Of a stretch of DNA of 64,000 nt, positions 25,922 to 58,096 are shown piece by piece. The translations under genes and the position numbers were made by a program. This stretch comes from Methanomicrobia archaeon. Lineage in GTDB: Archaea; Halobacteriota; Syntropharchaeia; Alkanophagales; Methanospirareceae. Below the pieces are notes generated by a model that worked only from the letters and a program-made list of their open reading frames with translations, ran no database searches and had not been told where the DNA came from. Location: assembly GCA_016930255.1 (NCBI GenBank), contig JAFGHB010000040.1, forward strand, positions 5,187-69,186, in the 5' to 3' direction. Positions within the stretch are counted from its first letter, which is position 1. Every line of letters begins with the position of its first letter.

Positions 25922-28900
25922 TCAGTACAACCGTATCGCTGGTATCCAATTTGTGTGAATTTCCCCATTTGCATCTTCAAATGAAGTGCACGTTATCACT
26001 CCACCGGTTGCATTCCATGACGGCTCGTTGATGATCTGCGGGTACGAGCCCGTGCGGATGGTGTAGTAGTAGGTTTCGTTTGCGTGGAGGGTAAAGGATT
26101 CGTTAAACGACAGATTGTGCCAGTCTTCGGAATAACCCTTCCAGTAGGCTTCGGCTATCTTGGTACCATTTGAGTATGAAATAGCAGCGTATTCGGTATG
26201 TCCACCTGTTCCTGGACAGGAATACGTATAAAGCTTCTGCACAATCATCGTTTGATCCGGCGTGATTGTCCCATTGTGTACGCCGCAGATACTCGGATAA
26301 GGATTTGCTGAGGAGCCGGTGTCGAAGACCACCGCTTCAGACACCACATTCCACACCCACGTCTGCATAGCCGTGCCATTTGTATTCGTAGCGATTGCCG
26401 AGACGTTATGCTCACCGACTACTTCCGCATGCAGCCTGTAACTGGCTTCCGTTACGCTCTCATTTGTAAATAGGAACGAACCATTCAGATACCAGCTCAC
26501 GTTTACCGTTTGATTCACCGTCACGTTAAACGTCCTCCAGGTGCAGACGGTATCGTTAACCGGTGATGGAGGTGCGAAGGACGTGATGATTGGCAACAGA
26601 ACTTCTTTGAAATTCCGCAGGCCCGGCGTAGGACCATCGACATCAGCACCACCGGTATTCTCCCAATCACTGCCATCGTCCGTATCTGTGCTCTCCTTGT
26701 CCCTGCCGAGCGATTGCCCCTGAACCGGAGCTTCCGGGTTCGTTCCAGTCCATGAAGTCCCATTCGGCGGCTCATTTGTGTTATTGCCGTATCTCACGAA
26801 GTCTTTACCCGTGCCGTCAGCAGATAGCAGGCTTATACTCTCGTTGGTATTGTACAACACTTCGGAAGTGAACCCACCATAAAGATCCTCTGCAGACGTA
26901 TCAAGCGTGCCTCCGATGTGGAATACGAGATACGAACCAGCTTCTAAAACACCGTCCCAATCAGAATCATTCGCTGGTATGGTGTAGTTCACTGGTATGG
27001 TGTAGTTCAGATCGCCGTCCCCGTCCACGATCCGCCAGCCGGTAAGATTGACCGCAGATTCTCCCGCATTATAAAGCTCGATCCATTCTTCTTTCGCACC
27101 TTGCGTAGCATTTGGATAGGGATAAACTTCGTTTAGCACTATGTGCGACGGCGCGACTGTGAAGCTCGTCTCGGCCACGAGCTTCTCTTCCTCTGTCACC
27201 ATCGCCCGTCCCACGTATTTCGGCAGTTCTATATCGCTTACCTCGAAGGTTACCGGCTGCGGTGTTTCACCTATCTCCAGGCCTTCTGCGGCAATTTCTT
27301 CGTATAACATGCCGCCGCCGGTTTCAATCCTCAACATGGGGTTAACAGAGTGTGTCTCCCCGTCCGTGCTCACGATAGTGGCGTAAACGGTGAGATCATT
27401 TCCGTCCACAACGTGCGTCTCTTCCACTCCTATCGGCGCGGTGTACGTCAGATTCAACACGAGTTTGTCGTAAACGGTTGTTTGGTTAATCGTTCCGTTA
27501 ACCTGCCATGCCGTTACCGAACCAAAGACGCGATCTCTATTCGTGAAGGGATCATACTCAGAGCCGTTTACAAAAAGCACGTCTGGGAACAACTCGCCGG
27601 TATATAGTTCCATTTCCATTATATCACTAAAATTCACTTCTTCTTCCCACTTTGATTCTGGTCTCACATTCGGCTGGGAAATATTATACACCTTGTATAC
27701 TGTTGCATTCGCTAACGAGACGTTTGAAATATTACCGCCTACCGGGAGGTCATACTCAAAATAGAGTAACGGCAATGCGGAGTAATTGTCTTCATCGAAC
27801 ATAAGCCGGTCAATATCCGTGAAGTATATCTCCACAACACTCCCATTGAAATCGTTCATCTCGACGGGCACCGGAACGTCAAAGGTTATAGTAACCTCCC
27901 ACTCCTGAGTCTCTGAATCGAAGACGGGCGTGCCATAGCTCACTTTCCCATCTCCAGAAGCTGGTGGATCTATCTTAACCGAGGAAAGCCCGAAGAGGTT
28001 GAACTCATGTTTCGTCAGTGCGACTGAAGCCTGGGAACTATCATATCTCTTTGTCCAGAGATCGTTTCTATCCAAGGTGTCGATTGCACTTATATAAGCG
28101 CATCCAATCGTTTCTTCCCTAATAATCTCGTCAAGCACCTGTGGTATAAGCTCATCTGACGCTCCTGCTTTTGCAATCGCTGTGGCACCAATATAGGATA
28201 ATGTCCCGTTCCGCAAGAACGCAGTGGTGATGCAATCCTTCTCCCAGATCCTGCTCGAGCCACAACTGGCTGCGATGACCAATGAAGGCGATAACTCCGG
28301 CACTTCGTTTACATCCAGAGTTACATTGTCATCTGATCTAGTATCAGTAGCCTGCCAAATAGTATTTCCAGCAGCATCCTTACTATAAGTATAACCGTTA
28401 AGATTACTTATATCCCAGGTAGAAGTCCAGCTATGTCCGCTATAAAATACAATTCCCTTGCCAGGTAAATTCTTTATCAGAGTGGTATCAATGAGGTCTG
28501 TACTGTTTAAATAATCGTCAACGTCAGGTACATTATCAACGCCTGTGAAAGCTGGATCCTCATCGTACAACCAATCAACTTCCATATATTCAAATTCTGA
28601 TATGTCCTCGTCAACCAGCCCATCACCGTCGTTATCCGTGCCGTCTAAGATCTCTTCATCCACAAACGGCTCGAAATCGCCGGGGAATGGTTTTATCCAG
28701 CCCGGATCCGCATTTAAACCCGCGCGGTCCCCCTCAAAAACAATTTGATCTCCAGCACCCCATTCCCCATCCCTATCTATGTCTCTAAATATCTCAACGT
28801 ATCCAGTGAATGTTCCTGCTGCAAAGCCAGGTTCATCTGCTATGTAGTCATAGTCGTCGTTGAAACCACTTTTTTGTCCATGATACTGTGGAAGGTCTGG

Positions 28901-31900
28901 AATATACTCTATCGGAGCTTCTTTCCACCATCTATCATTGTGGTCGTGGAGCCTTGACCAGTCTGTTCTATCAAAAGCGTACCATGCACTACCCAAACCA
29001 CCCCCATGCGCAGATGGCTTCTCATACAACTGCATTAGATTACCCTTTTTACTACTATCATTCAGTTTATCGCCAGCCCAGACCACAGACTCAAGCCACC
29101 AAACACGGTTATCGGCCCAGCGCCGTTTACCGTCTGTATTGTAGATACCCACCGCCAAGAACTCCCTCTCCCAGTCACCGCGCTCTCCAACGTCGAGCTC
29201 GGCAAATTGTAACGCGCGTGCCATATAGTTCACATTATCTTCGCTATACAGCGGCATTCGTCCACCCGGTAGTATGTTCGTGTGTGCATGGTAATAGCGG
29301 TAATCACTTGCTATCCAATCCTTGTCAGCATCTGTTGGATTAAATTCGAAAGGTTCTTGCTCTATGCCAAACGGCAAAGAACTCGCATCCCCCACCAGGT
29401 AAAGCGTTGCGGGCTGCCATCTGAAGATATAGAGTAAGGTGCGAGTGGCCATATAGGTGGAGATGAAGCCGTTGAGGTCGTGCTCGTGTGCCGCATTGTC
29501 TACAGTGCTTCTTACAAGGTTGGTTAGGGGATATAATCCTGCATAGCTATTATTGGTATAGTTAACCGGTGTACTCACCACATCCCGAACATCAAGAATC
29601 ATTGATTTGTAAAACGCTGCGAGCGGTGCGGCTGCAGCGGAAGAGTTCGCCCATGAATTGGTTACCACAATGCTCGACGACTTGTCACCAAACGCTTCTA
29701 AGACCTCGTTGAACAGATCTGTTGGCCCTCTGTTAGTAAGCGGTTCTACCGCACATCCTTTCACGATCAGCGTCCGGTTCTCTTCCAGATTCAGATTTTT
29801 CGTGTCATTGATTATGGCTCCGACAGCAGTTTTATCATCGGCAATCACGAGGATGAACGTGATGTTCAAGTTCTCGATGAGCTTTTTTGCTTCCATCTGG
29901 TTTTTCAGCAAGGAAGAAGGTGCCATCGGCCAGTTGAGGTAGGAAGCAATGGGTGCACCCATAATCGCGGATTCCCGCGTATCATTGACGATAACGATGC
30001 CCGAGGAGTTCTTCCAGAAGGCCGTAAACGTCTCTTCGGCATTCGAGGTGAAATTGCTGATACTGAGAAAAACAGTCCCGTTTGGATAGTCAATGCCATC
30101 GAACTCGGTCGCGATGTCAAGCAGCTCATTGAGGGACATCGTAATTGGATTGTAATGTCTGGTAGGTGTACCCTTCTTGGACGTTTTGGCATCGTCATCG
30201 AACCATATCGCAATGGGCACGGCGTAGACGGCGCTTTCAATGCTATCGGCTAAATAGCCCCTACCGTCTGCGTCTGCCTTCTTCACGCCTTTACCAAACG
30301 GAAATTCCATCGTGACCGTGTTATTCGTCTTATTCGCATCTGTTACCGTATTATCAGGGTTGATGATAGCCGTGATATTAAAAGGGAAAGGACTGAGCTT
30401 AATCCCTTTTATTGACCATGAGACGTTCCAGCCGTCGAAGGAGACATTGACGCTCGTGTTTGTGGGTATGTCGACCGTTTTATTCTGGATCGCCATGCCG
30501 TTGACCACGAGGCGAACCGTGACGTTGGAAACGTTGAAGGAGGCATTCGTATGAACAGTCACGTTTACCGTGGCATTCTCGCCACTTACCAGTAAGGTAG
30601 GAACGACGAGATTCGATATGTAGAGATCAATCATCAAAGGATGGTAATCGCCGCCATGTGTGATATTCCCGGAGCTGTTATAGGGCAGGAGCGTGTCACC
30701 CAGTTCGTCACCATCCACCTCCTCGCCCGGATAATCGCTCCAGTAGTTGCCACCTAAACAAGGCCCGCCAATGATGTTCGTGCCATTCGCTCTGGTGATA
30801 TTCCAGGTGTTCTCACCGTCGTCGTACGCGTTGTGCATATTGTTGAAGAAGTTGTTGTAGATGAGGTTGTCGTTCGAATAAACCAGAGCTATGCCAAATT
30901 CGAGGTTCGCGTTTACCGTGTTGTTTATAATACGGTTGTCATTCGAAGTATCCAAGCAAATGCCATAGCAGAGGTTATCCGATGCGGTATTGTTTGATAT
31001 GATGTTGGTTCTTGACCAATCCAAGTAGATGCCACTGCCATTGTTGTTCGAGCAGGTATTGTTTGTAATGGTGTTGTAGAACGAGTCATACGAGCCAATG
31101 CCGTCATCTTCATTGTTTGAAGCAGTATTATTTGCTACAGTATTGTTTTCAGAAAAAAACAAAACGATGCCATCGTAGTTCATCGATACATTGTTGTTTG
31201 TAATGGTGTTCTCAGAACCGCCCCCGCTGATACCATAATAATTATTTGTCAATGTATTGTTACTAAGGGTATTATTACAGCCATCCAACTTTATTCCTGA
31301 ACTCATGCCTCCAACAGTGCCGTAAGCCCCGAAACCATAGCGAAGTGCATCGCCAACACTGGCGTTTAGCTCTCCTAACGGGATCTTAAACTCGTATATA
31401 CGGTGCTCGTAGGGCACGGAGGAGGTGTACTGGAATCCGATGGCACCCCATTCGGTCTCCATACAGGAGACACGGAACTCGCGCAGTGCTCCGTCCACCA
31501 TCACAAAAATCGCGCCCCAATCTTCCTCGTCCGGCGTATTGTCTGGCGTGACCTCAACGGCAGCATACAAATACGCGCCGTCGCTGTGTAACCAGCCGTA
31601 GGTGTAGCCGTCAGGATGCGGTGTATCAGGCCTCCAGAAGACACTGAAGTCAGGTTCCTCCCGCTCTTCAAGCACACCATCCACCTTGATGCCACCATCG
31701 TCAACAATGGTGTGCGAGAGCGTATACCCCTTACGAAGCAGAGGATAATAGAGGGGACTGCCATGACTCTTCCCGAGGTCCTCTTCCATTGCACGCATCA
31801 CCAACGTGGTATTCTCAGGCACGTTCTCCCAGCTTATCTCCACCGTGCTATTCCAGGCGTCGCAGACATCGTACTCAGGAGTGCGTATTTTATACAACAC

Positions 31901-34441
31901 ATTCTCCTTGTTCTCGATATGTACTGCTGAGCTGGGAACGTATAGCGCCTCGTCTTTCTGCACAGCCACATAGTCCACGTAAGCCGCGTCGTGCCCTCGC
32001 TGGGAGAGTCTGAGCGTGAGATTTCCCGCATCGTGCTCTAATTGAAGCTCACGCGTTTCATAATAAAAGAAGCTGAGTTCTCCCTGTTCGTCCCACGCCC
32101 CGTCGGTGAGTATGAGGACGTCAAAGGAATCCCCGCCCCCACCTGTATGGCCTGCTGCAGTGTTATTAATTAAGGTATTGTTATCGGAATTTTCAAGGAC
32201 AAAGCCGTCCAAATTGTTCGACTCAGCAGTGTTGTCAATCAGTTTATTGTCATGTGAATCTCCGGCCAGATAGAAGCCATATATGCCGTTTAAGTTTGCC
32301 GTGTTGTTTGTGACAGTATTGCCCGAAGAAGATGCTATGTAGATGCCGTAGTCGCTCTCCGAGGCATTGTTGTTTGCGAGTGTGTTGTTATTGCTCGTAT
32401 CGCTCGAATCCAACCAGTGGGATCCTAAGTAGATGCCCGCGCTCATTTGAACGCGGAAAGGGTTGGAATAGAACTCAGCTTCATTCGAGTTTGCGGTGTT
32501 GTTAACGATGTTGTTATTGCTCGAGCCTAACAGATAGATACTTGCCCAATTATTCGATGCGTTGTTGCTGGTTAATGTGTTGTTGTTTGCAGAATACAAG
32601 TAGATGCCCTCGTAGTTGTTATTAGCATTCACGTTTTCTATCCTTGAATTATTTGTGTAGGCAAGCATCACTCCCTGACAATTGTTTGTTAACGTTAAAT
32701 TCTTCACCGTTATATCGTTGGAGTTTACAATCCCCACAAAGCCTGCATCGCTCGGGACCGTTTCACCACTGTGGTCTACCCAGTAATAAATCGGTTTTCC
32801 ATCAATGGAATTTGTGGTGTCTATCTCCAGGATATAATCGGAAAGACTGAGGCCGCCAACACCGAAGTTGTATTCATTTCCCGAGAGCGTGTTATCGGTG
32901 AGCGTGCTGCCACCCGAATAATCCATCCAGACCCCCATTCCTTCGTTTGCGGTTACAGTGTTACTCGTAAGCGTGCTGCTGCTCGATTCCACAAGATAGA
33001 TACCTTGTTGGTTGTTTGAGACGGTGTTCTCAGTGAGAATGCTGTGGCTCGAATAAAGCAAGCTGATGCCCCATATATAATAGGCCACCTTATAGTTATT
33101 TGAAACCGTATTGTTCGTAATGATGCTGTATCCCGAATGCACCAGCTCGATACCTTCCCCGTTGTCAAAGACCCTATTGTCGGAAACAGTGTTATGCCAG
33201 GAATAATAAGACACGAAGATGCCTGCCCCGTTTGAGTTTAGGGTGTTACCGGTGATACTGGTGTTGTTACAGAAATACTGGGAAATTATGCCATAACTAT
33301 TTGATGAGGCATTATTGTCGGAAATCGTGTTATTGCTTGAATAATATTTCAAGCGGATGCCTGTGTAGCCATAGGATACGTTATTGTCGGAAATCGTGTT
33401 ACCGCTTGAATAATTATGCAAGCAGATGCCTTCGATGGCTGAGGATACGTTATTGTTGGAAATATTGTTGCTGCTTGAATTATACAAGTAGATGCCTTCG
33501 TCGCTGTGGGATACGTTGTTGCTGGAGATCGTGTTGCTGCTTGAATTTCCTAGGTAGATACCGCCACCCCAGTAGGAGTGGGCCTTATACATGCTCGAAA
33601 CGTTGTTGCTGGAGATCGTGTTGCTGCTTGAATTATACAAGTAGATGCATTCATCGCGGTTGCTCGAGAAATTGTTGCCGGAGATCGTATTGTTGTTTGA
33701 ATTAAGCAAGTAGATCCCCCTACCCATAATAGCAGAATAATTTAAGAGGGTATTACCGGTGATAGCACTGTCATTGCAGAATTCTAAATAGATGCCCGGA
33801 CCCGCCGTACCGTTGCCATCAAAGATGCAGTTCTTTATCATTGAGCCGGTTGAGTTATAGAGACTGATCCCCACACCTTTGAAAGATAACCCTTCTACCC
33901 GTATTGCTCCATGGATGTGTAGTTTAGCATCGTTCACCGTTACGTTAGGTTCAATTGTTAAGGTCGCACCCTCTTCTACTATTACAGGCCCTGATAGATT
34001 ATAAGGGCTGCTTGCCGCGGTCCAGGTAGTATTCACGGTGATAGTCCCGTGCACCCTTCCGGTTTTCGCACTTACGGTAGCATTTTCTTCTTTAATGAGC
34101 CCACCACTCGAATTATAAACGCATATTGCGTAGATGTATAACTCCCCCTTAGTTAGCCCGAATTCATCTCGGTAAAAGGTGAGTGAGCGATTATCCGTCG
34201 TAAAAATGGGGCTATCATTCCTGAAAATCCGGTATGTCGAAAAATCCGCTGACGGATATTTCGACCAGTTCAGATCGACTATCGTGTTTCCAACGTAAAG
34301 GGCTTCCAGGGACACGGGTGCTGCGCTCGCGGTACCGCTCATGCAAACAAGAGCGGTGAAAAGCAACACAACAATGAGCAACAGGAGTGAACATAAAACA
34401 ATCACTTTCTCGCCTACGCCTTTTTCTACACCTTCAGGCAT
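25922..34441 (-). CDS. giant (about 2839 aa) secreted cell-surface protein with many parallel beta-helix (PbH1-type) repeats and a lamin-tail domain
   Basis: Start at ATG 34441, preceded by GGGAGGTG 11-17 nt upstream. Signal/TM helix VIVLCSLLLLIVVLLFTALVCMSGTASA. Dozens of …NNTISxNNVSxxxxGIYLxNSSxNxIxxN… repeats. LTD motif …LNEVYPYPNATQGAKEEWIELYNAGESAVNLTGWRIVDGDGD… Extremely high density of N-x-S/T sequons. Confidence 0.85.
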   Translation of the reverse strand: MPEGVEKGVGEKVIVLCSLLLLIVVLLFTALVCMSGTASAAPVSLEALYVGNTIVDLNWSKYPSADFSTYRIFRNDSPIFTTDNRSLTFYRDEFGLTKGELYIYAICVYNSSGGLIKEENATVSAKTGRVHGTITVNTTWTAASSPYNLSGPVIVEEGATLTIEPNVTVNDAKLHIHGAIRVEGLSFKGVGISLYNSTGSMIKNCIFDGNGTAGPGIYLEFCNDSAITGNTLLNYSAIMGRGIYLLNSNNNTISGNNFSSNRDECIYLYNSSSNTISSNNVSSMYKAHSYWGGGIYLGNSSSNTISSNNVSHSDEGIYLYNSSSNNISNNNVSSAIEGICLHNYSSGNTISDNNVSYGYTGIRLKYYSSNNTISDNNASSNSYGIISQYFCNNTSITGNTLNSNGAGIFVSYYSWHNTVSDNRVFDNGEGIELVHSGYSIITNNTVSNNYKVAYYIWGISLLYSSHSILTENTVSNNQQGIYLVESSSSTLTSNTVTANEGMGVWMDYSGGSTLTDNTLSGNEYNFGVGGLSLSDYILEIDTTNSIDGKPIYYWVDHSGETVPSDAGFVGIVNSNDITVKNLTLTNNCQGVMLAYTNNSRIENVNANNNYEGIYLYSANNNTLTSNNASNNWASIYLLGSSNNNIVNNTANSNEAEFYSNPFRVQMSAGIYLGSHWLDSSDTSNNNTLANNNASESDYGIYIASSSGNTVTNNTANLNGIYGFYLAGDSHDNKLIDNTAESNNLDGFVLENSDNNTLINNTAAGHTGGGGDSFDVLILTDGAWDEQGELSFFYYETRELQLEHDAGNLTLRLSQRGHDAAYVDYVAVQKDEALYVPSSAVHIENKENVLYKIRTPEYDVCDAWNSTVEISWENVPENTTLVMRAMEEDLGKSHGSPLYYPLLRKGYTLSHTIVDDGGIKVDGVLEEREEPDFSVFWRPDTPHPDGYTYGWLHSDGAYLYAAVEVTPDNTPDEEDWGAIFVMVDGALREFRVSCMETEWGAIGFQYTSSVPYEHRIYEFKIPLGELNASVGDALRYGFGAYGTVGGMSSGIKLDGCNNTLSNNTLTNNYYGISGGGSENTITNNNVSMNYDGIVLFFSENNTVANNTASNNEDDGIGSYDSFYNTITNNTCSNNNGSGIYLDWSRTNIISNNTASDNLCYGICLDTSNDNRIINNTVNANLEFGIALVYSNDNLIYNNFFNNMHNAYDDGENTWNITRANGTNIIGGPCLGGNYWSDYPGEEVDGDELGDTLLPYNSSGNITHGGDYHPLMIDLYISNLVVPTLLVSGENATVNVTVHTNASFNVSNVTVRLVVNGMAIQNKTVDIPTNTSVNVSFDGWNVSWSIKGIKLSPFPFNITAIINPDNTVTDANKTNNTVTMEFPFGKGVKKADADGRGYLADSIESAVYAVPIAIWFDDDAKTSKKGTPTRHYNPITMSLNELLDIATEFDGIDYPNGTVFLSISNFTSNAEETFTAFWKNSSGIVIVNDTRESAIMGAPIASYLNWPMAPSSLLKNQMEAKKLIENLNITFILVIADDKTAVGAIINDTKNLNLEENRTLIVKGCAVEPLTNRGPTDLFNEVLEAFGDKSSSIVVTNSWANSSAAAAPLAAFYKSMILDVRDVVSTPVNYTNNSYAGLYPLTNLVRSTVDNAAHEHDLNGFISTYMATRTLLYIFRWQPATLYLVGDASSLPFGIEQEPFEFNPTDADKDWIASDYRYYHAHTNILPGGRMPLYSEDNVNYMARALQFAELDVGERGDWEREFLAVGIYNTDGKRRWADNRVWWLESVVWAGDKLNDSSKKGNLMQLYEKPSAHGGGLGSAWYAFDRTDWSRLHDHNDRWWKEAPIEYIPDLPQYHGQKSGFNDDYDYIADEPGFAAGTFTGYVEIFRDIDRDGEWGAGDQIVFEGDRAGLNADPGWIKPFPGDFEPFVDEEILDGTDNDGDGLVDEDISEFEYMEVDWLYDEDPAFTGVDNVPDVDDYLNSTDLIDTTLIKNLPGKGIVFYSGHSWTSTWDISNLNGYTYSKDAAGNTIWQATDTRSDDNVTLDVNEVPELSPSLVIAASCGSSRIWEKDCITTAFLRNGTLSYIGATAIAKAGASDELIPQVLDEIIREETIGCAYISAIDTLDRNDLWTKRYDSSQASVALTKHEFNLFGLSSVKIDPPASGDGKVSYGTPVFDSETQEWEVTITFDVPVPVEMNDFNGSVVEIYFTDIDRLMFDEDNYSALPLLYFEYDLPVGGNISNVSLANATVYKVYNISQPNVRPESKWEEEVNFSDIMEMELYTGELFPDVLFVNGSEYDPFTNRDRVFGSVTAWQVNGTINQTTVYDKLVLNLTYTAPIGVEETHVVDGNDLTVYATIVSTDGETHSVNPMLRIETGGGMLYEEIAAEGLEIGETPQPVTFEVSDIELPKYVGRAMVTEEEKLVAETSFTVAPSHIVLNEVYPYPNATQGAKEEWIELYNAGESAVNLTGWRIVDGDGDLNYTIPVNYTIPANDSDWDGVLEAGSYLVFHIGGTLDTSAEDLYGGFTSEVLYNTNESISLLSADGTGKDFVRYGNNTNEPPNGTSWTGTNPEAPVQGQSLGRDKESTDTDDGSDWENTGGADVDGPTPGLRNFKEVLLPIITSFAPPSPVNDTVCTWRTFNVTVNQTVNVSWYLNGSFLFTNESVTEASYRLHAEVVGEHNVSAIATNTNGTAMQTWVWNVVSEAVVFDTGSSANPYPSICGVHNGTITPDQTMIVQKLYTYSCPGTGGHTEYAAISYSNGTKIAEAYWKGYSEDWHNLSFNESFTLHANETYYYTIRTGSYPQIINEPSWNATGGVITCTSFEDANGEIHTNWIPAIRLY

Positions 34442-35089
34442 GTGATAGTTACACCTCCCGTACCGAAATATGTTCACATGTCCATATAAAACTTTAGCTT
34501 TTGACCTACAGATAGAATATTATATGCAAAAAATTAGGCAGGTAAGATAAGATCAAAAGGACGTTTTTAACTAATAAGGGGAAGTAGCCTCGATGAGGTA
34601 TAATAAGCTCTTCTATATTTGTACCGGTCTCAATTCCCTCGGGATGCAGCAGTCGTTCGATTCCAGAAGCTCAAAAAATCGTTATAAGAGGCTTCGTTCG
34701 TGTAGATCCGTTAATAAAAAGGGTAATGTCGTGAATAGAAGTTGGTTAGAGAGAAAAAGCGATGCCCATGCTGCCAGAAGAAGCTATGAAAAAGCGATGA
34801 ATACGGAAGAAAAAGAATGAAAAAAGACGGCTGAGACCAGTTGACAGCCTTATTTTTTCTAAATAAAAGGTATGATCCACTTTTCTAAATTATAAATGGC
34901 TATTAACGAATAAAAACACAAAATAAGCTCTAAAATTGCTCTATTCCGGCATTTTTACCAGTAAATACGTGTCCTAATCTCCCCCTCCGCATGCTTTTTC
35001 CTTACATGTACGAGCCTGCTCTACCTCCTCCGATCGCGTGTTAAGACTTATGTGCGCCGAACATAAACAAAAGACACGAGGATACTCAC

Positions 35090-46687: not shown

Positions 46688-46721
46688 CGGTGCTTCTCTG
46701 CAAACCATCATAGATAGGAAC
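46688..46721 (+). repeat. left copy of ~30-bp imperfect direct repeat flanking hicBA
   Basis: cggtgcttctctgcaaaccatCATagataggaac. The partner at 47552-47583 (cggtgcttctctgcaaaccat---agatagaaac) shares 21 identical bases followed by a 3-nt indel. Confidence 0.8.
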
Positions 46722-46840: not shown

Positions 46841-47056
46841 TTATTTAAGAAGTGTGATTAAATCATCTTTACTCAACCCGGTTTGATGCGGGATATCAAG
46901 TAACGTCCCTTTCGCGAGTTCGTTATGCAAGGGGACAACGGTTTTGAAAGTTTTCCCTGCAGTTACTTTTTGAAACGAGACGTGACTGCCCTTACGCCGA
47001 ACTTCGACAAACCCCGCTTTCTTCAGGACTCTGACAAGTTCCTTTCCTGAGACCAC
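46841..47056 (-). CDS. hicA: type II toxin HicA (mRNA interferase)
   Basis: MVSGKELVRVLKKAGFVEVRRKGSHVSFQK…TVVPLHNELAKGTLLDI…GLS… matches the HicA/YcfA consensus (GF..R.KGSH…VP.H..L..GTL). Confidence 0.85.
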   Translation of the reverse strand: MVSGKELVRVLKKAGFVEVRRKGSHVSFQKVTAGKTFKTVVPLHNELAKGTLLDIPHQTGLSKDDLITLLK

Positions 47057-47313
47057 GGGCAGTTTAAGGCATCCGCCGCTTCTGCCTCTACTTCTACTTT
47101 TACCTCTAACGGTGTCCAGTAAGGGGTAACAGATACGCCAGGCAGGTCTTCAAGCCCAAAACTCTCGATGTAAAGTTCGATAGCCTCTTTGAGATTCTTC
47201 TGTGCTTCCAAAAGGGATTCGCCTTGTGATGTCACGCCAAGTTCTGGACACCGTGCCACAAAGAATTTACCTTCCTGGATGATGGACACCAGAAATACCC
47301 GTTTGTTCTCCAT
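47023..47313 (-). CDS. hicB: type II antitoxin HicB (UPF0150-like)
   Basis: …FLVSIIQEGKFFVARCPELGVTSQGESLLEAQKNLKEAIELYIESF… matches the HicB N-domain. 34-nt overlap with hicA. Confidence 0.8.
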   Translation of the reverse strand: MENKRVFLVSIIQEGKFFVARCPELGVTSQGESLLEAQKNLKEAIELYIESFGLEDLPGVSVTPYWTPLEVKVEVEAEAADALNCPWSQERNLSES

Positions 47314-47551: not shown

Positions 47552-47583
47552 CGGTGCTTCTCTGCAAACCATAGATAGAAACC
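47552..47583 (+). repeat. right copy of direct repeat flanking hicBA
   Basis: See the 46688-46721 entry. Confidence 0.8.
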
Positions 47584-47652: not shown

Positions 47653-50600
47653 CTAAAACCTCTCCAAAAACTCCTCAATAACCTTTATATCCTCGTCGTT
47701 TAACCCGTACAGTTTATAAACAAGCTCGTTTATCTCCGCTTCGAGTTCCGTGACTGATGGCGACTTTGTTTGGGCTTTATCTTCCTCAAGCTCCTTCAAA
47801 ATCGCTTCGATAATCGCATCATTTTTGGGAACGAGAAGCTGCAGCTTTTCGTCTTTCTTTGCACGTTTTCCTTTTAGTGCCGCAACAACGTAATCTGCCT
47901 TCGGTTTTGAATCAACGAAAATGGCCGTTTCTTTTTTCCCGATTACGATGTTGTATCCACCACCCTCAACAGTTTTCTCTACAAAGGGTTCAAGCGTCTT
48001 GTGATTAGACTTGAAAGTGACGGATTTGGAGTCGAACTCTTCACCCCTGCTACGATAATCTTGAATGCAATCCTCAGGGAAGTTCTCGATTTTCTGCTCC
48101 AGCTTCACTAAATCTAAAATACGCTCGACTTTGTTCGTTATTTCGTCTGCAAGTTTTTGTTCTTCTGGAGTTTGTGGAAGTTTGATTGGAAGAGGTTCCA
48201 AATATTGTTTTTTATAACGGTAGTAATCTCCTGATACGGAAGGACTTATTTGCTTGTGGTAAAATTCTGTTAATTTCGAATTTAATAATCCCAATATGAA
48301 AGGGTAGTATTTTTTATATTCATTTTCTAAAATTATAACAAAACAAGTATCCATACAAAGCCAGCTTCCCGATTTGTCAAGACTAAATTTATTTCCAGTT
48401 GAAATATCCGGAGTGATAATTTTTTCTTCTAACATCTGAGGATTTGGATGCCAAAGTTCGTACCATCTTTTCCCAGTCTCCGAAATAGTCATTCTCCAAG
48501 ATTTCCTATTTTTGAGAATATCTTTATATTGCTCTAAATATCTCAAAACGTTTGGATATTCATCTAATTCTACAACTTCAAATGAATTATTTTCCTTTTT
48601 ATAAGGGTATATAATAAACGTATCAACTTTTGATGTGTCTCCAGTCCATATAAACCCCCATTTTTCAACATTTCTACCTCTAAGAATGGGATAAATAAGT
48701 TCTTCTTCAAGAGAGTGTTCTTTTATAAATTTTTTAGTAATAGGATTGATAAATACGTCATTGTTACCCGTAACGATGCCCTCATTAATCCTCTTGCTTA
48801 TGTCTACCAAATTTGAAGTGGAATCTTTTCGAATTTTCCCCACAACTTTTTGTTCTGGAGCAGATAAAAATTCCCAGGAATCTTTCAATCTTTCCTGCTT
48901 TATATCTAAAATTTCAATATAGTCATTTCTATATCCCTCTTTTGAGATATATATTCCGATGTAATCTAATATTTCATCTTTTGGTTTTAAAACATTAATA
49001 AATTTTAATGTATTCCCAGGTTCAAATTTATTTTTTACTATTATGACACTAGGATAATTTGTTGCGTCTTTAAAGACCCCTGTATCACCAAAATCTATCA
49101 ATGTTAGTATGGAATGATTGTTACAGATGAAGTCTCTTACCCTATTCCCATAGTGAGAATGAATAAACTTATTTGATGTAATAAATCCAAACTCTCCTTG
49201 TTGACTAAGCCAGTTGATTCCTCTTTCCATAAATGGAACAGCAAGATCAAACTTCCCTAACACGGTTTTATAGTTTTTTCTGAGGTAATCATTCATTTCC
49301 GTGGGCAAGCTCTGCACCCTCACATACGGGGGATTCCCCACCACGAAATCGTACTGCACGTAGTTTTTCAGAATCGCAGCAAGTATGATGTCCTCAAGGG
49401 ATTTAATCAGTTTACCATCGCCGAACGTGTCTTTAAGCTCCTTGAACTTCTGCAAGAAGTGCTTAGCGTACGGCGTGAAGAAAGATACCAAGCCATTCCA
49501 GTCTCTGTCCTTTAAATATCGCTTGAAATTACGCTCTAGCTCTTTTGTATCAACTTTGTACTTTTCTTGCCACGCAGCTTCTTTCACCGTGTCAAAAACC
49601 GCTTGGAGCGCTGCGAAATATTCCTCAACATTGGGCAAATCTGTTTTTGCAATGACCTCTTTGAAGTAAGGCATTTTTATCTTCAGGTCGCCACCCTCAA
49701 CGGGCAAGCCCGTGTCAATTGCAATAAAGTGGATACCTTTCGCAGACTCCTCAATAGTTACTTTCCTTGCCTCGCCCTTCGTCTCGTTAACCAGCGAATC
49801 CGTTCTGAAAATCGGCAGGCGATTCAGAACAAAATGGGGGTCCTCCTCCATCGCTTTCTTATACTTAGGAATCAGGACGAGCATGAACTGCATCTGCGCC
49901 ATAAACGTCGCGAACGGGTGAATATCAAAGCCGACGATGCAGTATTCGTTACAGAGCTCTTTTAAAATCTCCGACCACCCTTTTTCATCTGCGATTTGCT
50001 CAGACGCTTTGAGATAGCGCCGTAATACTTCGACCAGAAACGTCCCGGAGCCGCAGGCAGGATCTAACAGACGTTTACCAAAAACATTCCGTCCTTCGTA
50101 ACCAACTGCATCGAGTATGTACGTTACCACCTCTTGCGGCGTGTAAAACTCACCGAGTGCTTTCCTCGTCTCTTTATCGAAATAGCGCTGGTACAACGTG
50201 CCGAGTGGATCACCAATGATCTCCGAAAAGTCAAACTTGTAGAGTGTTAAAATGATCTCGGCAAGCGCCTCGCCAAAGTATCCTTTTTGCTTCTCATACC
50301 GGGGACTGAAAAGCGCATCTCCCGCGCTTATCTCTTTGTAACTGTCCTCCCACCAGTAGAAAATATCACCCTCGAAAACTGATTTAACCAGCTTCTGTTT
50401 CATGCTCTCAATGAGATTCTTCGTCGTTATCGCCCACGCCAGGAGCGTTATATCGCCCCGGTACGATGCCCGCTCAATTTCCGTCTTGATGAACCGGGAA
50501 AACTCGATATACGGCAGTTTATAATCCTCACACGCCTTCGCCAGAATCAACCGTGTGAATAAAGAATACGCACTTTCCAAGCAGAACATGAACTTGAAAA

Positions 50601-51369
50601 GATTCTCCTCGCTCGCTTCAAGCCCGATACTATCCATTATCTTCCGCCAATTCTCTGGCACTTTCTCCGGCTTCTTCGCGTACGAAACCTTCCAGAAATT
50701 GTACGCGCTTTTAAGAAACTTAGACCGCTCCAACTCGAAATCAAACAGGCCGATTGTCTTTTGAACCAAAATCGAAAATATAGAGCCTTCTTTCAGTTCG
50801 AAGCTCTCAAAGAAATACTCCTGCGCAATCTCCGTGGATAAATTTACTTTCTCCTCAGGTTTATCAAACCGCTCGAAATAGCCGAGCACCTCTTCAATCC
50901 TCGTTCTCTCAATGCTTGGCTTTTTTAGCCACTCATAAACCTCTTCGCATTGCGATAACGTAACATCGTCAAGAGTAACGTGCAGTTTTCGTTCCCAGTT
51001 AGAGTTTATCCGCTCATAAATCAGAAGTTCCAATCCATCGGTAAGTAGTCCATATCTCGCTTTGAGCGGTTTCACATACCGCTCCCACAATTGTGCAAAA
51101 TCTCGTTCTACATTAATCTCATTCGGCCTTTTAAATTCAACCACAAACACCACATTCTGATAGTCGTCAAAGGCAAGCAAGTCGCTTCTTTTGCCTCTTA
51201 CACTCTTCTCAAATCGTATATCCTTAAACTCTTTCTCGTAACCAAGCACTTCAAGGATACCACTCTTTACAAAAGCCACCCGTAAATCCTCTTCAGAAAT
51301 CTCCTTCCCGCTTTTTATCTTCGCGTGTAGCTCTTCGAAGCTTGCACGTATCTTCTTGGCAGTGTCCAT
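47653..51369 (-). CDS. type IIG/IIL bifunctional restriction-modification enzyme (MmeI/Eco57I-like: N-terminal PD-(D/E)XK endonuclease + gamma-class N6-adenine MTase + TRD)
   Basis: N-terminus …LLAFDDYQNVVFVVEFKRPNE… (D-x9-ExK). MTase motif I …RLLDPACGSGTFLVEV… and motif IV …FVVGNPPYVRVQS… Long C-terminal target-recognition region ending …ELEAEINELVYKLYGLNDEDIKVIEEFL. The TRD-coding part (about 48.2-49.3 kb) is much more AT-rich than the rest. Confidence 0.85.
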   Translation of the reverse strand: MDTAKKIRASFEELHAKIKSGKEISEEDLRVAFVKSGILEVLGYEKEFKDIRFEKSVRGKRSDLLAFDDYQNVVFVVEFKRPNEINVERDFAQLWERYVKPLKARYGLLTDGLELLIYERINSNWERKLHVTLDDVTLSQCEEVYEWLKKPSIERTRIEEVLGYFERFDKPEEKVNLSTEIAQEYFFESFELKEGSIFSILVQKTIGLFDFELERSKFLKSAYNFWKVSYAKKPEKVPENWRKIMDSIGLEASEENLFKFMFCLESAYSLFTRLILAKACEDYKLPYIEFSRFIKTEIERASYRGDITLLAWAITTKNLIESMKQKLVKSVFEGDIFYWWEDSYKEISAGDALFSPRYEKQKGYFGEALAEIILTLYKFDFSEIIGDPLGTLYQRYFDKETRKALGEFYTPQEVVTYILDAVGYEGRNVFGKRLLDPACGSGTFLVEVLRRYLKASEQIADEKGWSEILKELCNEYCIVGFDIHPFATFMAQMQFMLVLIPKYKKAMEEDPHFVLNRLPIFRTDSLVNETKGEARKVTIEESAKGIHFIAIDTGLPVEGGDLKIKMPYFKEVIAKTDLPNVEEYFAALQAVFDTVKEAAWQEKYKVDTKELERNFKRYLKDRDWNGLVSFFTPYAKHFLQKFKELKDTFGDGKLIKSLEDIILAAILKNYVQYDFVVGNPPYVRVQSLPTEMNDYLRKNYKTVLGKFDLAVPFMERGINWLSQQGEFGFITSNKFIHSHYGNRVRDFICNNHSILTLIDFGDTGVFKDATNYPSVIIVKNKFEPGNTLKFINVLKPKDEILDYIGIYISKEGYRNDYIEILDIKQERLKDSWEFLSAPEQKVVGKIRKDSTSNLVDISKRINEGIVTGNNDVFINPITKKFIKEHSLEEELIYPILRGRNVEKWGFIWTGDTSKVDTFIIYPYKKENNSFEVVELDEYPNVLRYLEQYKDILKNRKSWRMTISETGKRWYELWHPNPQMLEEKIITPDISTGNKFSLDKSGSWLCMDTCFVIILENEYKKYYPFILGLLNSKLTEFYHKQISPSVSGDYYRYKKQYLEPLPIKLPQTPEEQKLADEITNKVERILDLVKLEQKIENFPEDCIQDYRSRGEEFDSKSVTFKSNHKTLEPFVEKTVEGGGYNIVIGKKETAIFVDSKPKADYVVAALKGKRAKKDEKLQLLVPKNDAIIEAILKELEEDKAQTKSPSVTELEAEINELVYKLYGLNDEDIKVIEEFLERF

Positions 51370-51373
51370 TTGC

Positions 51374-51964
51374 TTATACTTCTCTAATATCCTTTACAAG
51401 GAAATTACCACCCTTTAGTTTTACGCCTGCTATCTCGAATTTCTTACCGAGTAACGCGCCTCTTATTCGTGCAAGCGTTGCCTCTTCCCTTATCTTCTTC
51501 GCTTCTTCCAGAGTGATCTTCGCACATTTCTCTGCTATTTCCTTTTTGAAAATCAACGTGCAGCGTTCTCTTCCATTATCGAACCGGGCTTTGATTCGTA
51601 GATCCCAGATCCCCTCAACATCGCTGTGCACGATACAAAAATTATCGATGATCCATCGATTGCATTTGGGACACCGCTGGATAAGCCCACTGCCATCGTA
51701 AATCTGTGTTATGTTTCCCACGAGTGTCATGAGATCCTCGCTCGGTTCCGAAGTCTTTGTGAACGAAGGTTTCTCAAGGAGTTCCTCAACCTGCTCTGCC
51801 TCAATAACAATAGCATTCGGAAACTTTTCTGAGAACGAATTCAAAACCTCAAGCGCTTTCTCTTCGCCCCGCGTCTCAAGAATCTTTAACGCCTCGGGAT
51901 GAATTTGATAGCCCCGCCCAAGAATCCGTTTCAATATGCCTTCGGTTGATGATGAAAAAGCCAT
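51374..51964 (-). CDS. OB-fold/zinc-ribbon nucleic-acid-binding protein (RPA-like), translationally coupled to the RM enzyme
   Basis: 196 aa. …NAIVIEAEQVEELLEKP…TLVGNITQIYDGSGLIQRCPKCNRWIIDNFCIVHSDVEGIWDLRIKARFDDG… has CxxC…C.xH inserted in an OB-like segment. Its stop lies 4 nt before the RM start codon. Confidence 0.4.
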   Translation of the reverse strand: MAFSSSTEGILKRILGRGYQIHPEALKILETRGEEKALEVLNSFSEKFPNAIVIEAEQVEELLEKPSFTKTSEPSEDLMTLVGNITQIYDGSGLIQRCPKCNRWIIDNFCIVHSDVEGIWDLRIKARFDNGRERCTLIFKKEIAEKCAKITLEEAKKIREEATLARIRGALLGKKFEIAGVKLKGGNFLVKDIREV

Positions 51965-52194
51965 GAAGCATCTATTGTACTATCCTACATAACTTCATAA
52001 ATAGATATCAGATTTGATTCTATCTATGGCATCTCTGTCAATTACTGCACAAAATAAGAAATGTCAGGACTTTTTACTCCTCATACACCACCCAATAAAT
52101 CGTACCCGCCTTTTCGTCGGAGATGAGCAGCGAGCCGTCCTAACCTATATAACGCTACACGGCAAATGAATTGACAGTGAGTGATAGATAAGAG

Positions 52195-52359
52195 ATGAAA
52201 AAATACAAATGCACGTTATGTGACTACGTCTACGACCCTGAAAAAGGCGATCCCGACGGCGGGATAGAGCCGGGTACGGCGTTTGAGGACCTGCCTGACG
52301 ATTGGCTGTGCCCTGTCTGTGGTGCCGCCAAAGATGACTTTGAGGAACTGGAAGACTAA
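52195..52359 (+). CDS. rubredoxin
   Basis: 54-aa [54 protein letters not shown], with the two CxxC(G) iron-binding knuckles. Missing from the ORF track because it is under 60 aa. A TATA-like CCTATATAAC lies about 45 nt upstream. Confidence 0.9.
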
Positions 52360-54122: not shown

Positions 54123-54749
54123 ATGGATGAGATAGAGCTAATCACACGTTCTGGAGGCCATTTCTATCGTACCCCGATCGGTATTCTCCCTAGTGTGACC
54201 ACTATTATGCGCTCGATTCAGAACCCACACTTGATCGCGTGGAAGAGCAGGACTCCAAACTGGAGAAAAATCGCCTCACACGCCGCGTACGTCGGCACGA
54301 AGACGCATCGCACTATCGAACGCTACCTCAACGACGAATCGCTTGACGAGCTTTACTGCGATGAGGTCTCGAAACCGTTCGCCGCATTCCGGGACTGGCA
54401 GTGCGCGAGCGGCTTCACGCTGGTAGACTGCGAACGAAGGATATGGAGCGACAACGGCTACGGCGGGACGGTAGATCTCGTCGGGTATATTAACGGCGCG
54501 CTATACCTCATTGATATAAAGACCTCGAAAGCGGTCTATCCTGATTATTCGCTTCAGATCGCAGCGTATCGAACCGGCTACGAGGAACGAACCGGCGAGC
54601 AGATCGAGGGCATGGGCATCCTGCGATTGGACAAACCCACCGGCGCGTTTGAATGGAAGGAATATTGCGATACTGAGTATCAAAGCGCCTGGGAGGAGTT
54701 CATGCTTCTCTGTGAGTCCTGGCATTCTACCAATAAGGATAACGAATGA
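54123..54749 (+). CDS. PD-(D/E)XK-superfamily nuclease (YqaJ/lambda-exonuclease/Cas4-like core without Fe-S cysteines)
   Basis: …GTVDLVGYINGALYLIDIKTSK…QIAAYRTGYE… gives the D…(I/L)D.K motif plus a downstream QxxxY motif. No C-terminal 4-Cys cluster. Confidence 0.55.
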   Translation: MDEIELITRSGGHFYRTPIGILPSVTTIMRSIQNPHLIAWKSRTPNWRKIASHAAYVGTKTHRTIERYLNDESLDELYCDEVSKPFAAFRDWQCASGFTLVDCERRIWSDNGYGGTVDLVGYINGALYLIDIKTSKAVYPDYSLQIAAYRTGYEERTGEQIEGMGILRLDKPTGAFEWKEYCDTEYQSAWEEFMLLCESWHSTNKDNE

Positions 54750-55354
54750 GCGCAAGAACTGTACAGACGGACCTGAGCGCATACGTCAACGTCAAGACCA
54801 CGGATAAAACACCGAATATCCTCGATTTGATCGTTCGATTAGTAACAGAAGAAGAAGGGCCGTGGCGCGGAACCGTGCGGGAATTACGGGACTGCCTAGG
54901 CTTGGACATACCGTCACAGAGCTTGGCCGTATTGCTCGAGCAGGCGCAGGCTGAGTTCGAACGCCGTGGGATCGTGATCGATCGTAAACACGAGACGGGC
55001 CAGCACGTCATCGCGATCTCGTACGAGCCCGAAGCAGGTGCAGCGCCAGACGAGCCGTCGACATCGCATGAACCCGGCGCCGTGAGCCATGCCGAAATCG
55101 CGACGGCCGTTGAATATCCGGTAACCTTCCCGTTCTCCTGGGTCATCAACGCGAAGGAGATCACCAGGATACGCGAACTTTCGCACGAAGAGCAGGCGAA
55201 CGCGAGACAGGAGCGTAAGACCTGCAGCTTGTGTGGCAGCAAAGAGATAGCATACGAGAAGCTCTCCAGTGGATTTTCCCACTTGATTTGTGCAGAGTGC
55301 GCTACCCGCTACGTGCTCAACGCAGACGCGTTAAAACGTCGAGTGGAGAGTTGA
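54746..55354 (+). CDS. hypothetical protein with C-terminal zinc ribbon, coupled to the nuclease
   Basis: ATGA overlap with the upstream nuclease. C-terminus CSLCGSKEIAYEKLSSGFSHLICAECATRY. Confidence 0.5.
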   Translation: MSARTVQTDLSAYVNVKTTDKTPNILDLIVRLVTEEEGPWRGTVRELRDCLGLDIPSQSLAVLLEQAQAEFERRGIVIDRKHETGQHVIAISYEPEAGAAPDEPSTSHEPGAVSHAEIATAVEYPVTFPFSWVINAKEITRIRELSHEEQANARQERKTCSLCGSKEIAYEKLSSGFSHLICAECATRYVLNADALKRRVES

Positions 55355-56699: not shown

Positions 56700-57401
56700 T
56701 CATAATGGTAGATTTCCATTTGTAATTATCCTTGCATTGATTTCGCCATAAACAGTGTTAGTTAGAATTAGGAGACGCTTTAGGTGAAGGTTGCAATATT
56801 CCAACACATCAGGATTAGTCCTGAACGTTCTTGCCATGACATCCACACGTGGGTTATCTGGTAATGGTAGTGTTAATGTCTTAGCCTCGGTATCTCCATC
56901 AATTGTTACTTCTATATTGAAATTTCCTGCAATTATACGCTCATGGGTCACCGCATTTCTGTACATGGAAAAATCATTCCTCCAGCTAGGATCGTCGAAC
57001 CGACTTATAAGTGCATCACCAGGGCGATTACTTCTTAGCAGTCGTTTTGCGGTCTGGAAATATACCTGTGTGGGGAGTGGGATGGCAAAGTATGTTAATA
57101 CTTCGCGAGCCAAAATATCCATTGCGCTGCCACATGTGTAAAAAAAGCCATCCAAGTACATGTTAGCAAGAAACATAAAGTTACTGCTTTTGCTAAGTGC
57201 ATCTGCTAGTTCTGTAGTTGACATTAGGTCAATCAATGAATCGAGATGGTGCCGAGCGCATTTGATTTTATGAATTAAAGCAAAGTGGTACCTTCTATAT
57301 CCTTTAACTATATCATCTGGAACATTACCAGATTCTTTCAAGGAATCAATAGTACTCTCAAGTCTTCCACAGTTAGTAAAATGGTGGTATGGTGTGAACA
57401 T
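56700..57401 (-). CDS. hypothetical protein with RNxxxH (HEPN-like) motif, AT-rich islet
   Basis: 233-aa ORF with …FSMYRNAVTHERI… (R-x4-H). The start codon overlaps the stop of the upstream gene (TAATG). Confidence 0.45.
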   Translation of the reverse strand: MFTPYHHFTNCGRLESTIDSLKESGNVPDDIVKGYRRYHFALIHKIKCARHHLDSLIDLMSTTELADALSKSSNFMFLANMYLDGFFYTCGSAMDILAREVLTYFAIPLPTQVYFQTAKRLLRSNRPGDALISRFDDPSWRNDFSMYRNAVTHERIIAGNFNIEVTIDGDTEAKTLTLPLPDNPRVDVMARTFRTNPDVLEYCNLHLKRLLILTNTVYGEINARIITNGNLPL

Positions 57402-58096
57402 TATGATTTTCCTCGCATTCGTTGGGCAATAGTGTCTTTAAGCGAGGCACTTAACTGACCCCTAATATCTTTAAGATCCATTTCTTTCCCACATTCCTCG
57501 CAGATGAAGATACTATTTTCAGGAAAACGATTAATACCACCTTTTGGATGGATATCTGGGTTTAATTGTTCCTCAAATATGTAAACATGTTCGCAGTCAG
57601 AACAGTGGATATTGACCCTGAAGGAAGGTGAATCGTCACCTAACTGTTTTACAAATCCCAATTCAGCTTCGGTAAATTCCGGCCATTCTCTTTTTTGTAT
57701 ATCCAAAGGAATCCTGAGTGTTCCTGGATAATCCCGAAATGAAAATATAACGTCGTGAAATCCATCTTCTTCAAATTTATTTTTCACGCTGAAGGTGACT
57801 ATGATATCCCCTTTGTTTTCTTTAGATTTGACATCTAGTAGGGCTAAAGATTTTGATTTACGAGATCTCCTTTTTGAAATTGAAACGGCTACTGATGTAG
57901 CGCCCTTTGGTAAATTGAAAATGGTAAACACTGCACTAAATGTTCGTGTGAATGGGATAGACCACGCATAAAGAATAGTGAATACCCCTGAGACATCTGC
58001 TTTTCCGCTTTCGCCAAGCCTAAAAGAGTCAACTAAAACTCCAGACCCAAAAAATGGTGTAATTTTCTTTTTCTTTTCACTTTTAGGTTTAGCCAT
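57401..58096 (-). CDS. hypothetical protein with Lys-rich N-terminus and C-terminal zinc ribbon, AT-rich islet
   Basis: 231 aa: MAKPKSEKKKKITPFFGSG… and …HCSDCEHVYIFEEQ…FICEECGKEMD…. Confidence 0.45.
   Translation of the reverse strand: MAKPKSEKKKKITPFFGSGVLVDSFRLGESGKADVSGVFTILYAWSIPFTRTFSAVFTIFNLPKGATSVAVSISKRRSRKSKSLALLDVKSKENKGDIIVTFSVKNKFEEDGFHDVIFSFRDYPGTLRIPLDIQKREWPEFTEAELGFVKQLGDDSPSFRVNIHCSDCEHVYIFEEQLNPDIHPKGGINRFPENSIFICEECGKEMDLKDIRGQLSASLKDTIAQRMRGKS

Follow-up and report, generated by a model that had tools for sequence, protein, structure and literature searches.

The 64,000-nucleotide stretch of DNA analyzed here, hereafter the window (a Methanomicrobia archaeon, assembly GCA_016930255.1, contig JAFGHB010000040.1, positions 5,187 to 69,186 of the forward strand), carries on its minus strand two closely spaced genes: that of a type IIG restriction-modification (RM) protein of 1238 residues, which we shall call the enzyme, and, immediately upstream, that of a 196-residue protein with a zinc-ribbon OB fold of the replication protein A (RPA) type, which we shall call the partner (Table 1). 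These two genes were found as a conserved pair in all the evaluable loci of the anaerobic methanotrophic archaea of group 1 (ANME-1), recurred together in several other lineages, and have diverged in parallel. We consider it probable that they constitute a functionally linked two-gene type IIG module in which the partner is a co-expressed accessory; the fuller explanation, in which a dedicated accessory binding single-stranded DNA (ssDNA) would couple the enzyme to ssDNA-bearing DNA, is the best that we can offer and one that we place just on the likely side. A supposedly solitary type IIG enzyme thus seems to have an undescribed partner; in the literature we found no report of an RPA-like partner for enzymes of this type.

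Evidence for the pairing was obtained from both sides. A scan seeded with the partner, restricted to one genome per GTDB species, retrieved 25 loci, 18 of which were of the ANME-1 type with enough downstream sequence to be judged; in all 18 the enzyme gene or its remnants lay directly downstream. An enzyme homologue 63–86% identical to that of the window began 1–11 nucleotides past the partner stop codon in 12 of those loci (L001, L002, L005–L009, L012, L014, L015, L018, and L020), which arrangement held even in L018, where the partner reading frame is shifted. In L003 a 1.35-kb insertion containing a 450-residue open reading frame (ORF) parts the two genes, and in the remaining five loci (L004, L010, L011, L013, and L017) the enzyme persists as remnants: a 263-residue N-terminal fragment, scattered fragments, stretches of 42 and of 29 residues, and a six-residue trace reading AQLWER. 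In the converse scan, for which metagenomes were queried with the conserved first 700 residues of the enzyme, 71 loci were recovered, and the partner stood in front of all 33 copies that were at least 76% identical (that is, of the ANME-1 type) and had upstream sequence, with a spacer of at most some 30 nucleotides in 31 of them. In L035 and L046 the partner carries a different N-terminal domain, and the L003 insert, in a decayed copy, separates it from the enzyme gene; L093 and L095 are isolated enzyme fragments. Because some metagenome loci duplicate genome loci (L033, for one, is the same contig as L003), these counts are not all independent. The question posed in the original prediction, of whether partner homologues recur beside RM genes, was accordingly answered in the affirmative; and the result that would have spoken to the contrary, of relatives devoid of an adjacent RM gene, is the opposite of what we encountered in ANME-1.

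Three further observations concern these loci. The 450-residue ORF that sits exactly between partner and enzyme (intact in the sublineage of L003, 6867–8219; degraded in another, at L035, 1617–2244, and in L046) had no Pfam match and contains, by eye, the sequence RSKIVH, an R-x4-H motif that recalls HEPN RNases. The metagenome-assembled genome (MAG) CSMAG_2503 holds two partner copies on different contigs, L004 and L021, the one with a truncated enzyme gene and the other at a contig end, which circumstance could reflect a real duplication, a strain mixture, or a binning artefact. In an exhaustive profile search, moreover, the full two-domain architecture of the partner formed a single cluster at 50% identity, that is, one confined to ANME-1; a 50%-identical homologue of full architecture, at a contig end in a MAG labelled Thermoplasmatales (L023, 4424–4819), is either the sole member from outside ANME-1 or part of a mis-binned contig.

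Outside ANME-1, the enzyme-seeded scan yielded 27 enzyme homologues (34–57% identical) with upstream sequence present, and three of these were preceded by a zinc-ribbon OB (Zn-OB) gene. In L050 and L051 the upstream protein, of 230–235 residues, has a canonical OB fold N-terminal to the Zn-OB, that of L050 sharing 80% identity with P0130, in whose cluster a protein labelled Altiarchaeales is found; in L070 the upstream protein, of 134 residues, is a Zn-OB alone. Looking up the relatives of these short RPAs brought three further pairs. P0294 (239 residues) overlaps by 8 nucleotides an enzyme homologue 48% identical (L100/L101); P0309 (224 residues) likewise overlaps by 8 nucleotides the gene of a 1291-residue protein with the HSDR_N_2, N6_Mtase, Eco57I, and TaqI_C domains, 38% identical over its full length (L105/L106); and P0303 (224 residues) precedes a fragmented enzyme copy (L102). 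Taken together, the pairs from outside ANME-1 thus join enzymes 38–57% identical to ours with either an OB plus Zn-OB protein of 224–239 residues (L050, L051, L100/L101, L102, and L105/L106) or the 134-residue Zn-OB (L070), at spacings that range from the 8-nucleotide overlap to a gap of 5 nucleotides. The pair has an integrase gene beside it in both L105 and L102, accompanied in the former by a group II intron reverse transcriptase and in the latter by a NACHT gene, and this placement in integrase-bearing islands suggests that the two genes move as a unit.

The two genes have also diverged together. Within ANME-1, the identity between partners correlated with that between residues 1–700 of the corresponding enzymes (Spearman 0.87) and showed no correlation with that of the specificity region. 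Across all the partnered lineages the correlation between the Zn-OB and residues 1–500 of the enzyme was 0.84, or 0.72 upon removal of the ANME–ANME pairs, and the groupings of the two were congruent: (ANME-1), (L050, L051), and (L070, L100, L105). It follows from this co-divergence and congruence that the two genes have descended together, as one unit, across deeply separated lineages. In a neighbor-joining tree of the enzyme the ANME-1 clade was uniformly partnered, as were L050 and L051; a soda-lake clade and deeper clades were unpartnered. The enzyme is hence no solitary gene in ANME-1, nor in several other lineages, and is solitary among other homologues. Between the two options that had been proposed at the outset, an accessory to the enzyme or an RM gene lodged behind a housekeeping gene, the linkage in both scans, the recurrence at 38–57% enzyme identity, and the co-divergence argue for the former.

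The partner is a genuine gene, because 704 homologues were found at E ≤ 1e-3, the best 120 of those 704 being 64–80% identical and almost all of full length, and because pairwise ratios of nonsynonymous to synonymous substitution rates (dN/dS) of 0.13–0.25 denote purifying selection. An identical protein is recorded from a 'Methanomicrobia archaeon' MAG and the closest relatives carry Methanophagales/ANME-1 labels, so that the window is that of an ANME-1 (Methanophagales) archaeon. An AlphaFold model built on a 145-sequence alignment reached a mean predicted local distance difference test score (pLDDT) of 85, with values above 92 over residues 78–196 and of 81–84 over residues 6–63, the intervening residues 64–77 forming a disordered linker; this model supersedes an earlier one from 14 sequences (pLDDT 65), in which the zinc ribbon was too weak. 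The C-terminal domain is an OB barrel within which sits a ribbon bearing C98, C101, C110, and H113, together with a two-helix insert. The three cysteines are invariant in the alignment and the histidine is conserved in at least 90% of the sequences, so that the ribbon perceived in the original prediction stands, though with the spacing CxxC-x8-CxxH and not with the CxH ending then described. The best Foldseek matches in the PDB were the trimerization core of the Pyrococcus abyssi RPA (8c5y_A and 8aas_A, E ~2e-7) and the DBD-C domain of human RPA70 (1l1o, 8rk2, and 9mj5), by which structure prediction the RPA-like assignment, with the OB fold of the DBD-C type and four zinc ligands in its ribbon, is confirmed. 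Judging from this modelled fold, the domain most likely binds ssDNA.

The partner is nevertheless no ordinary RPA. It shares with the archaeal and eukaryotic RPA large subunit's C-terminal domain the OB fold, the ribbon, the helical insert, and a sequence similarity that NCBIfam detected at E 1e-25 between residues 76–193 and the archaeal replication factor A profiles PRK07217 and PRK07218; but that match was sub-threshold, covering only profile positions 169–292 with 90 and 87 bits against curated cut-offs of 353 and 447, respectively. The protein thereby fails the curated score for replication factor A, and has a single OB fold in place of the full multi-OB architecture. DBD-C of RPA (1l1o) joins the heterotrimer bundle through a C-terminal helix; the modelled partner ends in the strand 187–195 of its 196 residues, and therefore lacks that helix of the RPA trimer. 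Its neighbor, in addition, is a restriction-enzyme gene and not that of an RPA-associated protein. Residues 7–72 weakly resemble the N-terminus of DP1, the small subunit of DNA polymerase D (NCBIfam, E 1e-3, sub-threshold), which similarity recurred at positions 5–68 of the DP1 profile PRK04036 in all 14 family members tested, with a best E of 4.6e-5 that lies far under the curated cut-off. Scanning the partner against Pfam gave no family, PDB sequence searches with the protein and with its profile gave nothing significant, and PADLOC-DB 2.0 contained no family matching it at E ≤ 0.1.

The nearest relative of the partner Zn-OB is, moreover, not an RPA, but the C-terminal domain of fusions with the primase large subunit (PriL), with 64% identity over 118 residues. 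These PriL–ZnOB proteins (P0123, P0126, P0129, and P0390, of ~500–550 residues, with the Pfam domain DNA_primase_lrg; loci L022, 4338–4676, and L024, 2059–2280) include P0123, whose Zn-OB, at that 64%, is closer to the ANME-1 partner than are the canonical RPAs aligned. The full-length fusions with an organism label all belong to Hydrothermarchaeota, most of the full-coverage matches being unlabelled; and in the literature we found no description of such a fusion. In those proteins the domain is part of the replisome through its attachment to PriL, whereas in our module it is carried by the partner of an RM enzyme, and the identity between the two implies an exchange of domains between a replisome protein and an RM partner. 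Given in addition the DP1-like N-terminus, both modules of the partner resemble replisome parts. The notion that the partner might be the split-off C-terminus of an ANME-1 primase found no support, none of the organism-labelled full-length fusions being from ANME-1. As no relative of the partner was present among the IMG/VR viral contigs, and BFVD returned generic single-stranded-DNA-binding-protein folds with none at E ≤ 1e-3, the module is not evidently viral.

The downstream gene was verified as the type IIG RM gene that had been recognized from the sequence: Pfam placed HSDR_N_2 at residues 26–120, N6_Mtase/Eco57I at 395–766, and TaqI_C at 894–1062, and PADLOC matched the protein to REase_MTase_IIG (E 4e-54). 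D63, E78, K80, and the DPACGSG and GNPPY motifs are invariant across 11 ANME-1 homologues, so that the product appears on sequence grounds to be a complete protein of the type IIG kind, with nuclease, methyltransferase, and target recognition in one polypeptide. Among eight full-length ANME-1 homologues the mean pairwise identity was 75–93% over residues 1–650 and 69% over residues 649–707, fell to 25–47% over residues ~710–1053, and rose again to 67–77% over residues 1054–1238. In the window the variable part has a G+C content (GC) of ~0.30 versus 0.46–0.48 in the conserved part, and this conjunction of low identity and low GC is the pattern of specificity-domain exchange; the enzyme thus looks to be active and subject to diversifying exchange. 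Among the hotspots of structural variation in ANME-1, a 2026 study listed an 'adenine-specific DNA-methyltransferase' along with hicAB, with high ratios of nonsynonymous to synonymous polymorphism (pN/pS; PMC13385816), and type IIG systems have been reported to be a main defence type in ANME (PMC12881386).

In all those features the enzyme resembles the type IIG/IIL enzymes of the Eco57I/AcuI, MmeI, and BpuSI families, in which one polypeptide likewise combines an N-terminal PD-ExK nuclease, a gamma-class NPPY methyltransferase, and a TaqI_C-type specificity domain exchanged between relatives. Those enzymes, however, are defined and annotated as solitary—an archaeal defence survey scores the type IIG system as 'a type IIG module alone' (PMC12988326)—whereas here the enzyme has a conserved and tightly coupled RPA-like gene upstream, both across a clade of order rank and in archaea outside it. 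The methyltransferase and specificity part also resembles PglX of the bacteriophage exclusion (BREX) systems (NCBIfam BREX_2_MTaseX, E 5e-44, below cut-off), which is a type IIG-like protein requiring partners; but further BREX genes are absent, the nuclease domain is part of the enzyme itself, and the partner is without a PADLOC model.

On the minus strand, the TAA stop codon of the partner, the four nucleotides GCAA, and the ATG of the enzyme at 51369 follow one another in that order, as had been anticipated in the original prediction of a 4-nucleotide gap. That gap is too small to hold a promoter. A TATA-like element, aligned by eye, lies some 30–40 nucleotides 5' of the partner ATG in most of 28 ANME-1 loci (ctATTTATga in the window, aATATTTAT in relatives); a scan for bacterial-type promoters and terminators was uninformative for an archaeon. 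We infer that the two genes are co-transcribed and that their translation is coupled.

The GC of the partner gene, which was to be compared with that of its neighbors, is 0.448 (0.472 at third codon positions, GC3), the eighth lowest of 45 ORFs in the window, whose median is 0.496; the enzyme gene overall has 0.407, and the genes flanking the block of hicAB, enzyme, and partner have 0.53–0.57. In most other ANME-1 genomes the partner GC follows that of the host, over a range of 0.39–0.57. By these compositions the module seems to have resided long in ANME-1 and to have passed mostly by vertical descent; the copy in the window may be a later acquisition or replacement.

Table 1. Positions in the window of the two genes, of the domains of their products, and of the adjoining sequence elements.
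Feature	Coordinates	Strand	Basis
Type IIG restriction-modification enzyme gene	47653..51369	-	Pfam HSDR_N_2, Eco57I, N6_Mtase, TaqI_C; PADLOC REase_MTase_IIG
PD-(D/E)xK nuclease domain (residues 26-120; D63, E78, K80)	51010..51294	-	Pfam HSDR_N_2; residues invariant
Gamma-class N6-adenine methyltransferase region (residues 395-780; DPACGSG motif I, NPPY motif IV)	49030..50187	-	Pfam N6_Mtase, Eco57I
Hypervariable target-recognition region (residues ~710-1053), GC ~0.30	48211..49242	-	Identity profile, GC profile, TaqI_C
Conserved C-terminal region (residues 1054-1238)	47656..48210	-	67-77% mean pairwise identity
Partner gene (196 residues: helical N-terminal domain, linker, Zn-ribbon OB fold)	51374..51964	-	ORF, homologues, dN/dS, model
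N-terminal four-helix domain of partner (residues 6-63)	51776..51949	-	Helices 6-16, 23-32, 34-47, 56-63; model pLDDT 81-84
OB fold of partner, RPA70 DBD-C / RPA41 trimerization-core type (residues 78-196)	51377..51733	-	Model pLDDT >92, Foldseek, NCBIfam
Zinc ribbon C98-x2-C101-x8-C110-x2-H113, within OB fold	51626..51673	-	Sequence and alignment
Four-nucleotide spacer (GCAA), partner stop to enzyme ATG	51370..51373	-	Sequence
Intergenic region with likely promoter of two-gene unit	51965..52194	.	TATA-like element; divergent from rubredoxin gene 52195-52359 (+)

Under the accessory model that we favor, a promoter 5' of the partner would drive both genes, with coupled translation; the enzyme would supply the PD-ExK nuclease, the N6-adenine methyltransferase, and a swappable target-recognition domain; and the constant part of the partner, the zinc OB fold of the RPA DBD-C type, would bind ssDNA and, presumably in complex with the enzyme, couple the latter to DNA carrying single-stranded stretches. 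We hold this mechanism with less confidence than the functional linkage itself. The direction of the effect might be either of two. The stretches in question might be those of host replication forks, so that new DNA would be promptly methylated and self-restriction limited; or they might be those of replicating or entering viral DNA, to which restriction, in the service of defence, would then be targeted. Lineage-specific contacts would come from the variable N-terminal module of the partner, which resembles DP1 in ANME-1, takes the form of a second OB fold in other archaea, or is missing altogether.

A more specific version would have the enzyme core and the partner constitute a domesticated, vertically inherited, replisome-linked RM system in which the partner tethers the enzyme to the fork, thus coupling methylation and perhaps restriction to replication. 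Residues 1–700 of the enzyme are 76–95% identical across the ANME-1 order and thus better conserved than the flanking housekeeping gene of 343/363 residues that was compared, which is 71% identical between L005 and L006. We regard this version as unlikely; if true, it would represent a hitherto undescribed way of controlling RM.

Several results weigh against the accessory model. The enzyme-seeded scan left 24 of the 27 loci from outside ANME-1 without an upstream Zn-OB gene, and since so many enzyme homologues lack a partner, the latter is not needed for basic activity. The short RPAs L097, L103, and L107, relatives of the partners from outside ANME-1, occur without an enzyme gene, nor did we find enzyme remnants beside them. 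A comparison of partnered with unpartnered enzymes for residues or indels separating the two sets gave only one weak column (F11), and therefore no docking site is evident. In the five ANME-1 loci with a decayed enzyme the partner remains intact, with an unchanged dN/dS of 0.15–0.25; the losses look recent because the remnants are still recognizable, for which reason this persistence is a weak test. The tracking of host GC by the partner, finally, indicates that it has long been inherited vertically, much as a core gene would be.

Those last two results also speak for the alternative in which the partner is a lineage-specific housekeeping factor of replication or repair, a minor paralogue of RPA that docks through a DP1-like domain, and the enzyme an old passenger exploiting its promoter, the two being co-inherited but not working together. 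Under that reading one would expect what was seen in the five genomes, a partner intact under purifying selection after decay of the enzyme, along with the amelioration of its GC to that of the host in most genomes, the kinship of both its modules with replisome proteins (the DP1 N-terminus and the 64%-identical Zn-OB fused to PriL), and the existence of short OB plus Zn-OB RPAs without the enzyme. The surroundings, too, are congenial to it in one ANME-1 sublineage, where the pair lies between an upstream conserved 363-residue gene without a Pfam match (methionine-synthase-like by eye) and a downstream ribose-phosphate pyrophosphokinase-like gene (also by eye); these flanking genes are 94% identical between L006 and L013, the enzyme gene that they enclosed being gone from L013. 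One would not, however, expect a passenger to turn up behind Zn-OB genes in three architectures, with enzymes 38–57% identical and always a few nucleotides away or overlapping, nor to co-diverge with those genes across lineages; in addition, the pair outside ANME-1 lies in integrase-bearing islands, as though moving as a unit, and both genes in the window have a GC below that of the genes flanking the block. Of the second option in the original prediction, that of an RM gene inserted behind a housekeeping gene, a chance insertion thus falls away, while the old-passenger form is weakened; it is the main rival, given the partner's intactness in the five enzyme-decayed genomes, and one that we judge rather unlikely.

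Quite improbable, in our estimation, is that the partner serves as a regulator of the module, with a function like that of type II RM controller (C) proteins, and that, by attaching to nucleic acid in the vicinity of the promoter or of the mRNA junction, it times or limits the expression of the enzyme. C genes are often small, upstream of, and coupled on the same strand to a nuclease-bearing gene, as the partner is; its fold, with the zinc ribbon, is a nucleic-acid-binding one; and that the enzyme functions without a partner in many lineages is what a regulator would lead one to expect. C proteins, though, are dimers of the helix-turn-helix class with a palindromic C-box as their binding site, whereas the partner has an OB fold of the ssDNA-binding RPA type, with no helix-turn-helix or other known regulator domain in Pfam or NCBIfam; and in the upstream regions of the 28 ANME-1 loci no conserved palindrome that might act as an operator was visible, the TATA-like box alone being shared. 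As to an accidental insertion by which the enzyme gene, in this genome alone, would have landed downstream of a gene unrelated to it, and for which the mobility of type IIG genes and the low GC of the region might be adduced, its probability is negligible, being excluded by the co-divergence and by a pairing that both scans showed at all the evaluable ANME-1 loci and that several further lineages share.

If the accessory model holds, the consequences would reach beyond the window. Type IIG enzymes are treated as self-contained and entered as single genes in defence catalogues, so that a widespread archaeal family would gain a second component in a conserved RPA-like partner that co-diverges with the enzyme. 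The partner would give a handle on how single-chain RM enzymes, some of which methylate one strand only, spare freshly replicated host DNA, as well as on how archaea couple defence to DNA under replication; ANME-1 archaea, for their part, are uncultured methane oxidizers that control the marine methane flux. The kinship of the partner Zn-OB with a primase-fused domain points, moreover, to an exchange of modules between replication and defence.

Other features of the window deserve mention. Just downstream of the enzyme gene, a perfect 21-nucleotide direct repeat, CGGTGCTTCTCTGCAAACCAT, at 46688–46708 and 47552–47572 brackets a HicA/HicB toxin-antitoxin pair (hicAB, 46841–47313, minus strand), an arrangement suggestive of a cassette that duplicated its target on insertion, and one in keeping with reported hicAB structural variants of ANME-1 (PMC13385816). 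A search for att-like repeats or a tRNA bounding the RM island found none, the only notable repeat of the window being that around hicAB and its only tRNA lying at 25781.

On the minus strand at 56700–58096, two abutting ORFs of 233 and 231 residues have a GC of 0.38–0.40 and a GC3 of 0.30–0.34 in a region of GC ~0.54. Neither matched PADLOC; Pfam gave nothing for the former and a sub-threshold zinc ribbon alone (E 0.009) for the latter, the second ORF having CxxC...CxxC motifs, and the two are probably another foreign or defence islet. On the plus strand at 54123–55354, a 208-residue protein with weak PD-(D/E)xK/Cas4-like matches overlaps by 4 nucleotides a 202-residue protein with a C-terminal C4 zinc-finger-like motif, the GC of both being host-like. 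Finally, a giant ORF of 2851 residues occupies 25922–34477 of the minus strand; positions 25922–25949 of that ORF also overlap a 222-residue ORF, and a tRNA-Leu(CAG) on the opposite strand, at 25781–25863, is reported to overlap the last three codons and the stop codon at its 3' end.

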